Position numbers and translations under genes: made by a program. Under the pieces are notes generated by a model, which worked only from the letters and a program-made list of their open reading frames with translations, was not told where the DNA came from and did not search any database. Below are positions 6,048 through 9,059 of a DNA stretch of 64,000 nucleotides, one piece after another (within the stretch, counting starts at the first letter, position 1; each line of letters opens with the position of its first letter). Origin of the DNA: Octopus vulgaris (lineage: Eukaryota); NCBI GenBank assembly GCA_951406725.2, contig OX597814.1, forward strand, positions 92,194,001 to 92,258,000, given 5' to 3'.

Positions 6048-8041
6048 AATATATATATATTGCAAGTATACATCTGTTCAAGTAGATGAATTTGTGTTTC
6101 AATTTATTTATTTAGAATCTGAGAATGCAATAACGTTTTTTAACTATATTTAGGCGGTCGTTCTTATTAAATATATTCGTATCGATAAATAGATCACACT
6201 GCTTTAAAATCAAAATTTTGATACTTTCGGAATGAATTAGCGTATATTATGAATTCTAAACAGATGAACTTCCATTGATGTTTCGTTAAAACTGCAGTTT
6301 TTCACTTTCTTTTGTACCATTATGATCATTTCTTGAGATACTTGGCGTTTATTACCCACTTTCTTGTTTGTCTCTATAAATTAATACGATATTCGTCACT
6401 TGTACAAAGTTCAAAGTACACGTTTACCAACGACATATGAACACACAGTTCATCGCCGATAACAAGATATTAGAGTTTGTTTTTCGACTTTTATTTTTTG
6501 ATTAAATACGACACATCTTTTCTGAATGTTATTGTAAAATACACTTATATTCCATTAACTATGTATTATACCCAAATGAATTTCCTTGCTTTTACTCTTT
6601 AAATTCATTTTTATATAACAGATTGAAGTATAACATTAAAGTTTCTGCAAATTTTTGTAGGAATATTAATTTGTGTTCAAACACTAAAGAAATTTTGCAA
6701 TGACTAAAAAGTAAAAGTCTGAAAAATTCAACAAACCACATCAGTAGGTTTATTAAAAGATAAAAATAAATGATCATGAAACTATAGAGTCAAAGCATAA
6801 TAGAAAATAACTACAAAAAAAGAAATATGGTACAAGAATAATGGGAAATAGCTATGCAACAAAATGTTCAAAATTTAATTAACATATATATATACATATA
6901 TCCACGATGTAAAACGAAAATGCTTTCTTACCATTACTTTAACAAAAAATTGTTTTACGACTGTTTAAATGGCTTTTAAAAGTAGTTTTTAGAAATTGAA
7001 AATATGCAAAATAAATTTGAATACAAGAAAAAAACACATGCATTATGTTCACTTATACGACATACAGAATAAAATAACATTAATCTTAACGAACACGCAA
7101 ACTCTGTGAAATAATTCTTTTTATCATGTTAGAAAATTCAAATCTGTTCCGTGATCAGCTACATCTCGTATGCTTTCAGTGATAAGCACATATGTTACCA
7201 TTGCTATAATAAATTTCTAAAGTATTACTCTTCTTTTTTGAAAAGAAACTCGCCCTCGAGTCAAAAAAAAGAGCTTCTATGTAGCCACTCGACAAGCAGA
7301 TTTAGCAATAATAACTATAGAAAGAATTGCCATCTTAACAATGATACATCAAAAGATGTAGTCTTAGAAAAATTTTTAGAAGAGAAATAGAGGAAAAGTT
7401 GCGCCTGAGGGTTGACCGAGGGTTAAACAAAATCGACAACCATGTGTCCACTATTGAAATATAAATTATTTCCAAATGAAATATAGCTTTTGTGTTGTGT
7501 CACAGTTATGTCACAGTTGCAGATTTACGAGTGAACGCTATTCAAATACAAGGAATATACTCTCACAAGTAGCATAGGTAAATATATAACTTGGCTTTTT
7601 CCAGTGAAGCTATATATGTCCACAACTCCTTGTCGATAATCCAATGTGCTCTACACATTCCGAAGATGTGTATTAAACATTATAAAGGTGATGACGCGAG
7701 TAAGCAACACGATATGCATCTAGATTTGACTAGTTTTGGCCAATGATGTGCAGTGTACTGAAGCATTTGGCATGAAGATTTTTTTATAGATGATTATACG
7801 GACCTCGATGTTCATTTCAGTCTGGTTCAGTTATATATATATATATATATATATATATATATATATATATATATATATATACCTATATGTATGTATATAT
7901 ATATGTGTGTATATATATATATATATATATATATATATATATATATATATGTATAAGGGTGGAAAGGAACACACGAGTTGATATATATGAAAAAACAAGT
8001 CAAAAATAGAAAATGCTAAGAAAATTTTATAGTGAATCTTT

Positions 8042-8079
8042 CAGTACCGGTTTCGGTCATTTTGAGACCTTTTCAACTG
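8042..8079 (-). ncRNA. Minimal type I hammerhead motif, U3-A8 variant (mirror copy)
   Basis: Exact reverse complement of 8341-8378. Confidence 0.6.
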
Positions 8080-8340
8080 TAACGATTAAATAATTAAATT
8101 TAGAAAAATTAGAAGAAAAGTTTTTTTAAAAGAATATTTATGTAGTAGTGTTCAGATATAAGTAGCATTCTGCCTTTCTCTGACTCCCTTGTTTGCACTT
8201 GTGTGTTCGACGAACACACAAGTGCAAACAAGGGAGTCAGAGAAAGGCAGAATGCTACTTATATCTGAACACTACTACATAAATATTCTTTTAAAAAAAC
8301 TTTTCTTCTAATTTTTCTAAATTTAATTATTTAATCGTTA

Positions 8341-8378
8341 CAGTTGAAAAGGTCTCAAAATGACCGAAACCGGTACTG
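8341..8378 (+). ncRNA. Minimal type I hammerhead ribozyme motif, U3-A8 core variant
   Basis: cag TTGAAAA ggtc-tcaaaat-gacc GAAA c-cg-g TA ctg: stem I cag/ctg, stem II ggtc/gacc, palindromic ACCGGT stem III, GUA cleavage triplet. Confidence 0.6.
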
Positions 8379-9059
8379 AAAGATTCACTATAAAATTTTC
8401 TTAGCATTTTCTATTTTTGACTTGTTTTTTTCATATATATATATATATATATATATATATATATATATATATATATATATATATATATATATATATATAT
8501 ATATATATATATATATATATATATATATATATATATATATATATATATATATATATATATATATATGTATATGTATATATATATATATATATATATATAT
8601 ATATATATATATATATATATATATATATAGTTGAGGCGTTTTCCTTTAAGAACGTATTAGAGTACAAAATAGAGCTCGTTCACTTCACCCATAGAATTAC
8701 CACACACCCAGCAGTATTATGGTATAATAATACACTGATATACCACAACTTCTCTGGGCATCCCCATACATACACACAAACACTCGCGTACACACACGCA
8801 CGCACACACACATACACACACACACACACATATATATATATATATATATATGTATGTATAAACAAGGGTATAAAATAGTACCAGCATTTTATAAATTTGT
8901 CTTTACGTTTTAATTGTTCATAGACCAACTACATTATACAGCACGATAGATAGATAGATAGATAGATAGATAGATAGATAGATAGATAGATAGATAGATA
9001 GATAGATAGATAGATAGATAGATAGATAGATAGATAGATAGATAGATAGACAAGATGCA

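Follow-up and report, generated by a model that had tools for sequence, protein, structure and literature searches.

A near-perfect palindrome with mirror U3-A8 hammerhead motifs in Octopus vulgaris, likely a remnant of a Penelope-like element

A 64,000-nucleotide stretch of the Octopus vulgaris genome (assembly GCA_951406725.2, contig OX597814.1, positions 92,194,001 to 92,258,000 of the forward strand), hereafter the window, is rich in microsatellites and transposon remnants. At 7981-8440 of this window lies a palindrome that carries a hammerhead ribozyme motif on each strand and is flanked on both sides by (TA)n tracts. It is likely an ordinary mobile-element remnant, left by the pseudo-long terminal repeat (pLTR) of a Penelope-like element (PLE). 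The features of the locus are listed here; L001 is a comparator PLE locus introduced below.

7832..7955, no strand: left (TA)n microsatellite, which likely forms one half of the insertion target (Tandem Repeats Finder, TRF; 62 copies of TA)
7951..7980, minus strand: one-sided extension of 25-30 nt, likely the PLE tail, without mirror counterpart (7951-7955 could be microsatellite)
7981..7988, minus strand: internal (AT)4 that likely belongs to the element and provides microhomology to the (TA)n target (junction match with L001)
7989..8209, minus strand: left arm, probable inverted copy of the element 3' end (arm alignment)
8042..8079, minus strand: type I hammerhead motif with U3-A8 core, mirror copy (descriptor and Rfam HH9 alignment)
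8210..8210, no strand: single-base centre (A), the head-to-head junction (sequence)
8211..8432, plus strand: right arm, probable direct copy of the element 3' end, without tail (arm alignment)
8212..8257, plus strand: 5' segment of the unit with complementarity to its 3' end and tail; may be an inverted end copy of older date (duplex of -33.9 kcal/mol, 0/2000 shuffles)
8341..8378, plus strand: type I hammerhead motif, predicted cut after A8375 (sequence, Rfam HH9, folding)
8433..8629, no strand: right (TA)n microsatellite (TRF; 98.5 copies)

The first-pass annotation, made from the letters alone, had described a near-perfect palindrome with a 1-nt spacer at 8210 in TA-rich flanks, and this description holds. 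A repeat search places the arms at 7990-8209 and 8211-8430, each 220 nt long, 100% complementary and separated by the single base A8210. Aligned over 7981-8440, the arms give 230 columns with 0 mismatches and 1 gap column, which falls in a homopolymer (6 A in the left arm, 7 T in the right). One feature had been missed. The left end of the palindrome alone continues into a unique stretch of 25-30 nt (7951/7956-7980) that is not mirrored at the right end; the one-sided extension measures 33-38 nt when the (AT)4 is counted in. Searches of the window with the arm (blastn and nhmmer) match the two arms only, and the window holds no direct tandem copies of the unit. The arm has no blastn match among phage sequences. 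Coding homology was likewise absent from the palindrome (no tblastn match there, and no Pfam match on the one stop-free 32-residue stretch scanned).

The hammerhead motif with its UUGAAAA core reads on each strand as first proposed, at 8341-8378 on the plus strand and 8079-8042 on the minus strand. The two are one duplicated sequence and count as one observation. On the plus strand helix I is CAG/CUG (8341-8343/8376-8378), the core occupies 8344-8350, and helix II is GGUC/GACC (8351-8354/8362-8365) with a 7-nt loop. These are followed by GAA, the palindromic helix III sequence ACCGGU (8369-8374) and A17 at 8375. All core positions of a type I hammerhead are present (U4, G5, A6 and A9; G12, A13 and A14; A15.1-U16.1; and H17, here A). 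Positions 3 and 8 are a Watson-Crick pair by sequence, U3-A8, whose formation lies outside the scope of folding tools. The fourth position of helix I is an A-A mismatch.

A type I descriptor, run on both strands of 60 block-wise dinucleotide shuffles of the full 64 kb, gave 1 U3-A8 match and 0 C3-G8 matches, and the motif appeared in 0/5000 shuffles of the arm. The descriptors were written after the motif had been seen, so these chance figures lean low. The exact motif pattern had 0 matches in a collection of genome contigs. Both copies score 22.9 bits with Rfam Hammerhead_HH9 (RF02275; E 0.33 for the window, 0.00081 for 156 bases), which is below the gathering score of 52 and speaks against membership; the motif is not filed as an HH9 member. 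Together the sequence features support its classification as a PLE-type type I hammerhead motif and a predicted ribozyme. A relaxed-scan hammerhead match at 55228-55167 failed the stricter descriptors, and Rfam microRNA matches at the palindrome centre were hairpin artefacts below threshold. An intron ending at helix I, as in the Drosophila virilis Penelope, was also considered; a pyrimidine-rich stretch and CAG precede the core, but the donors are weak.

Natural U3-A8 covariation has been reported, with earlier in vitro activity cited (Perreault 2011, PMC3088659), and about 1,300 U3-A8 motifs were found in Schistosoma mansoni with a descriptor prompted by a PLE (Cervera 2014, PMC4209133). The proposal that U3-A8 is a valid substitute for C3-G8 is thus borne out. 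The novelty implied by the first-pass annotation is not: U3-A8 cores and pairs of hammerheads on opposite strands, 100-700 bp apart (Cervera 2014, PMC4209133), were already published for PLEs, and they recur in independent PLE loci. The closest published motifs are those of the S. mansoni Cercyon PLE (PMC4209133, row S. mansoni(4), NW_003038051), a row with the identical UUGAAAA core. The same paper reports that in vitro activity was low even for dimers. Shared with it are the type I topology, the heptamer, a U-rich 5' flank, a dimer-dependent helix III and the opposite-strand pairs at that spacing. The octopus motif differs in its 4-bp helix II without an extra base after A9, its 4-nt helix III palindrome and its non-trematode host. 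Position 17 is A here, U in S. mansoni(4) and G in S. mansoni(3). By our own count in the machine-read text of the 56-row published alignment (PMC4209133), U3 occurs in 3 rows, A17 in 6 and both in 0, numbers too few to show avoidance. In the literature searched, mostly without subscription journals and Repbase and so a weak basis for absence, no cephalopod description of this family was found and the term U3-A8 occurred in one paper only. Small PLE hammerheads reportedly cleave as dimers (Lunse 2017, as cited in a review, PMC6765202), and that study may already list U3/A17 variants.

For comparison, 19 PLE loci (L001-L019) were retrieved from the collection of genome contigs with an alignment of 11 long PLE proteins with reverse transcriptase (RT) and GIY-YIG domains. 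Pfam RVT_1 and/or GIY-YIG was found on 4/4 of the comparator open reading frames (ORFs) scanned. Several of the loci have hammerheads and (TA)n ends and stand in contigs of bacterial metagenome-assembled genome (MAG) records; the contigs are likely animal-host contamination binned into MAGs and not bacterial PLEs. In L001 (3-1265 and 1199-3511) the RT frame is overlapped at its start by upstream open frames that are in another phase, which suggests a separate ORF1 or a frameshift.

A descriptor that allowed any Y3/R8 combination matches 10/19 loci, or 9 distinct motifs since those of L010 and L011 overlap. Eight are C3-G8, one is U3-A8 (L004) and none has a mismatched 3-8 pair. Any descriptor match in the 3' region of L004 arose in 1/5000 shuffles. 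Among the 9 loci without a match, L005 has a C3-G8 motif that was read by eye. L004 resembles the octopus motif in its U3-A8 core, 4-bp helix II and 4-nt palindrome. L007 resembles the locus in arrangement: it is a head-to-head palindrome of 2,586 bp whose arms, 98.4% identical, carry mirror hammerheads around a 10-nt centre, although this palindrome could itself be an assembly product. L001 and L005 share with the octopus arm a hammerhead with A17, a U-rich stretch and then (AT)n, which begins 57 nt after the cut site in L001, 52 nt in L005 and 56-57 nt here. Unlike the octopus locus, L001, L004, L005 and L007 carry RT/GIY-YIG ORFs, and none of them has U3 with A17; the combination is found in 0/9 comparator motifs.

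L001 and the left copy of the palindrome share the same T-run, the (AT)n and the next 5 nt. Of the 360 (AT)n runs that the window has on its two strands, one shows this junction. Among the comparators, L001 gives the best alignment to the 75 nt that follow the cut site, with a score reached in 3/3000 shuffles and by 0/8439 other stretches of the window; L005 is next best (17/3000 shuffles). The 5 nt in common with L001 suggest that the left extension likely belongs to the element and not to the host.

The U3-A8 core raises the question of inheritance or decay. It may be that two independent transitions gave U3 and A8 in this copy only, in an element whose family is C3-G8, a reading that would go with any origin of the palindrome. 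In AT-rich genomes C-to-T and G-to-A changes are frequent, 8/9 comparator motifs are C3-G8, and both the predicted inhibitory U3-A17 pair and the mismatch in helix I fit a degenerate copy. Yet the other core positions, the G10.1-C11.1 pair, helix II and the helix III palindrome are intact, families with U3-A8 are published and L004 is a further case, and a mismatched 3-8 pair was seen in 0/9 comparator motifs even though the descriptor permitted it. Decay is rather unlikely, and inheritance of U3-A8 from the family is the considerably more likely course.

No RT or endonuclease sequence adjoins the palindrome, and no ORF with a telomerase-like RT and GIY-YIG domain was found there; it is not an autonomous, endonuclease-positive PLE. 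In Poseidon and Pen2a the first ORF codons lie within the pLTR, and this trait was looked for here. The candidate was an ATG in loop II (8360), by analogy with Poseidon, where reverse transcription begins at 111-118 nt within the ORF; the comparable distance here, from the ATG to the end of the tail, is 109-110 nt. The candidate found no support. The frame stops at codon 15 and its 40-residue read-through has no homologue. It fell outside the top 25 of 4266 tiles with an N-terminal profile from the 11 long proteins (a weak test, as these lack a long N-terminus), and ranked 703 or lower of 6396 tiles with a 3-sequence N-terminal profile. In three comparators (L006, L007 and L010) the hammerhead lies well upstream of the ORF start. 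The distance from stop codon to core is 146-337 nt in the 7/7 comparator loci measured, and 133 nt lie between the centre and U3 here; since these distances exceed the sequence available, no ORF is expected in the arm.

The palindrome probably consists of two 5'-truncated 3' ends, or pLTR pieces, of a TA-targeting PLE that stand head-to-head and likely arose in one insertion event. The anatomy is that of a 220-nt arm with a type I hammerhead motif, 56-57 U-rich nt and (AT)4, in which only the left copy runs on into a tail. A hammerhead near the 3' end, an inverted head-to-head 5'-truncated copy, a tail at one end and insertion in (TA)n, all expected of a pLTR remnant, are found together. The published PLE scheme has an inverted 5'-truncated copy and a 30-40 bp tail at one end only (Craig 2021, PMC8557442; the tail also in PMC3846280), and (TA)n targets are described for Neptune, Hydra and Naiad types (Craig 2021, PMC8557442). 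In Adineta vaga, Penelope elements have 218-bp pLTRs with a 31-bp tail on one inverted copy, and their head-to-head palindromic junctions were read as self-priming (Arkhipova 2013, PMC3846280). The octopus locus shares with these pairs and with the scheme an end repeat of about 220 bp, a tail of about 30 bp on one inverted copy, the head-to-head palindromic junction and a microsatellite target. It differs from the A. vaga pairs in that no ORF copy follows the pair, the arms are of equal length, the centre is 1 nt and no target-site duplication can be read.

A sequence of events can be proposed from the published PLE work. The GIY-YIG endonuclease would have cut the (TA)n tract, and the RT would have primed on the cut end and started in the tail. 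Synthesis would have stopped 133 nt upstream of the hammerhead core, in the 3' untranslated region and before the ORF. The cDNA end may then have folded back and copied itself as far as the internal (AT)4, which could anneal to the other (TA)n end. Copying of this kind to the (AT)4 would yield identical arms, a 1-nt centre and a one-sided tail. Alternatively, twin priming, with two cDNAs from both cut strands, would give the same product. In further published work both strands are extended and the tail is the interval between the two RT start sites; the hammerhead is protein-assisted and its cleavage is not needed in vitro (Frangieh 2024, PMC11167929).

A PLE remnant with an RT thumb, CxxC linker and GIY-YIG domain lies nearby at 2948-4072 and is counted in favour of a PLE origin. 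It carries at its 5' end an 85-bp inverted copy of its 3' region with 8 mismatches (90.6%, 2948/3988). Homology confirms it: an exhaustive search gave 261 proteins at E up to 0.001, where a smaller search with 3157-3567 had given 0/123 candidates. Of 7 homologues scanned, the 5 long ones have GIY-YIG and 3 of these also RVT_1, and tblastn maps them back to 2992-3955. No hammerhead was found in this remnant by the descriptors.

Several observations weigh against the proposed PLE origin. The coding trace that it would welcome is missing next to the palindrome, where the C-terminal profile ranks 13 of 6396 tiles at best (E 2.5), and the arm has no second copy in the window. The likeness to L001 depends on the terminal junction: without it, 510/3000 shuffles score as well, and the part upstream shows no similarity to L001 (944/2000 shuffles). 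Among ten comparators, 8 show no similarity to the 75 nt after the cut site. The best blastn hit of the arm to the comparator loci has E 0.018, and overall DNA similarity is not significant. Helix II lacks the extra base at position 9/10.1 that is listed as typical of minimal PLE hammerheads (Cervera 2014, PMC4209133), although L001 and L004 lack it as well. When the complete 259-nt unit is folded, the hammerhead helices are disfavoured (closing pair of helix I 0.02, helix II 0.16) and have to be forced at a cost of 6.5 kcal/mol. Finally, neighbouring palindromes have arms that are 100% and 99.6% identical in spite of frames full of stops, which means that in this region a perfect palindrome can also form once an element has decayed, or through assembly.

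The chief competing account is that an older, single PLE end was doubled later at the DNA level, by a template switch at the centre and a return through (AT)n microhomology, without any retrotransposition step. It draws on the same neighbours: 1372-2766 holds two palindromes with a common 31-nt centre, near-identical arms that include microsatellites, and 7-10 stops per frame, which looks like duplication after decay. But the mirror at 7981-8440 ends precisely at the (AT)4 of the element, with no host flank included, and both the head-to-head polarity and the tail on one side agree with published PLE insertions and with L007. We regard this account as rather unlikely.

The neighbouring region shows the following. 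At 1246-2766 a decayed GIY-YIG-like region is rearranged into palindromes at 1372-1522 and 1635-2669, which have a common 31-nt centre and opposite orientation. Their arms have 0/60 and 2/496 mismatches, every frame has 7-10 stops, and the second mirror extends through the compound microsatellites of 1523-2766. The region looks like an inverted template-switch duplication after decay. On the minus strand at 248-760, opposite to this GIY-YIG-like piece, lie broken frames that by eye resemble the C-terminal region of a PLE RT (Pfam 0). The GIY-YIG-like assignment was itself made by eye, from a CxC linker that resembles the Hydra-clade motif (PMC8557442); Pfam gave 0 on 1246-1431.

A sequencing or assembly artefact, with one arm only in the genome, is quite improbable. 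The 0 mismatches in 230 columns and the 1-nt centre are what a folded-back read would give, the long (TA)n tracts at the two ends could cause reads to be misjoined, and the window has other near-perfect palindromes. However, such a read would mirror the tail and the left flank, and neither is mirrored; the mirror ends at a meaningful junction common with L001. Diverged inverted repeats in the window (the 90.6% pair at 2948/3988) indicate that such structures exist and age, and the 64-kb window contains no N. The foldback artefact that the first-pass annotation had allowed for is thus unlikely.

It is very improbable that the unit of about 260 nt is the monomer of a non-LTR retrozyme, a small circular RNA, inserted in inverted form. 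The hallmark of non-LTR retrozymes is a direct tandem array of 150-450 bp repeats that each contain a hammerhead, and they give abundant circular RNA (PMC7229834); they have been proposed to derive from pLTRs (bioRxiv 10.64898/2026.07.22.740005). The unit falls within this size range and folds back on itself (z -2.16, 6/200 shuffles). With retrozymes and HH9 (PMC7229834; RF02275) the locus shares the type I topology, a 4-bp helix II, a CAAAA-like loop and a unit of about 250 nt, and the letters of loop II and helix I resemble HH9. But direct tandem copies, the defining trait, are absent, the ends of the unit are not at the hammerhead cut site, and circularising it brings no gain in fold stability over the linear form. 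The proximal stem of helix I has 3 bp and a mismatch in place of 6 bp, and the score is less than half of the gathering threshold. On the tests run the palindrome is not a tandem retrozyme. That the hammerhead is a chance pattern inside a foldback DNA transposon (miniature inverted-repeat transposable element, MITE) is a negligible prospect, for although the element is all inverted repeat, lies in TA and scores below the Rfam threshold, the arm shuffles never gave the motif, the ends are asymmetric and the 3' junction matches a PLE.

Folding predictions bear on what the motif could do. In the local monomer fold helices I and II form and helix III does not (C15.2-G16.2 probability 0.0000). The unconstrained homodimer forms helices I and II and a 6-bp intermolecular helix III through ACCGGU at -26.1 kcal/mol, with helix III pair probabilities of 0.55-0.99, as was expected from the palindromic stem III by the first-pass annotation. 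The mirror motifs lie on opposite strands, in sense and antisense, so they cannot be each other's dimer partner and would sequester each other. U3 is also predicted to pair with A17 (probability 0.70-0.73 in the monomer, 0.44-0.81 in the dimer), which argues against ribozyme activity. The C3-G17 trap is proposed to lower cleavage at least 300-fold in minimal hammerheads and 8- to 100-fold in stabilised ones (PMC3884650). By analogy with this inhibitory pair, reduced activity is predicted. The disfavoured hammerhead helices of the 259-nt unit likewise speak against activity here. In the parent element the motif would work only as a dimer through ACCGGU and would cut after GUA, slowly because U3 can pair with A17. 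The U3-A17 pairing would also confound the test with U3C and A8G mutants that the first-pass annotation had put forward.

At the locus itself, a transcript crossing 8210 is predicted to form a hairpin of about -368 kcal/mol that buries the motif. The read-through double-stranded RNA (dsRNA) suggested by the first-pass annotation, there as a putative substrate of ADAR or of the siRNA pathway, is thus retained as a prediction, with a perfect duplex of about 220 bp where about 230 bp had been given. Forcing the hammerhead within this hairpin costs 68 kcal/mol, a point against ribozyme activity here, and the folding model predicts that the ribozyme is silenced in any transcript that crosses the mirror. 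With the motif buried, the locus would more likely be a source of dsRNA, if it is transcribed at all, than an active ribozyme.

The 46 nt that open the unit next to the centre form a duplex with its 3' end and tail at -33.9 kcal/mol (0/2000 shuffles). Without the centre and tail the same duplex has -22.4 kcal/mol (5/2000 shuffles; 226/2000 for the opposite strand). As plain DNA, the 5'/3' similarity is not significant by local alignment (695/5000 and 908/5000 shuffles). In a post hoc comparison, 12 nt at the centre match the tail at 11/12 positions, a level reached by 26/23183 stretches of the window. The duplex contains 6 G-U against 1 A-C, a weak excess, as the alignment was chosen by energy. 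Such a panhandle is not a general PLE feature among the ten comparator ends, where 8 show nothing and 2 are marginal (5 and 7 of 300). The simplest reading of the 46-nt segment is an older inverted end copy from an earlier insertion round. RNA-level selection or editing may also play a part, a reading that hangs on the G-U excess.

Other mobile elements of the window are of different types. A Tc1/mariner element at 29772-31334 has 224-bp terminal inverted repeats (94%) and lies between TA tracts (Pfam HTH_Tnp_Tc3_2, E 1.5e-16). On the minus strand at 47180-48445, a 421-residue stop-free frame matches the MULE transposase domain (E 1.3e-06) and, weakly, FLYWCH. Three copies of a long interspersed nuclear element (LINE) 3' end (23749-25151, 32309-32824 and 58381-59184; zf-RVT, E 3.8e-08) are each bounded by tetranucleotide microsatellites. 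A 182-bp repeat (at 20090), similar to a short interspersed nuclear element (SINE), forms tandem and inverted copies at 20036-21522 and 53292-53532; ARAGORN finds no tRNA in it, and it looks like an octopus SINE. Older inverted repeats at 46307-46549 and 23088-25733 (74% and 81%) are possibly MITE or DNA-transposon ends. Frames at 41928-42478 by eye resemble a PIF1-type Helitron helicase.

The feature at 7981-8440 is real and mostly known: a likely further PLE end, its hammerhead variant and its arrangement both described before. Searches with CUGANGA only, or at the Rfam threshold (22.9 bits against 52), miss such motifs. With U3 and A17 combined, the motif could show directly whether the 3-17 trap also holds for pairs other than C3-G17. 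Given family copies and the empty site, the 1-nt-centre junction and its tail on one side could cleanly separate self-priming from twin priming in PLE retrotransposition. A further, joint proposal is a long shot. Under it the unit would be a non-autonomous derivative of a PLE, complete in itself, and would spread in the form of perfect palindromes, with its 5' end fixed by the 46-nt panhandle segment closing around the hammerhead. U3-A8 and A17 would together form a U3-A17 safety catch that is released only on dimerisation or protein binding, and the G-U-rich panhandle would record A-to-I editing before reverse transcription. If panhandle, safety catch and editing were all true, this would be a retroelement that carries host editing marks and seeds perfect dsRNA loci genome-wide.

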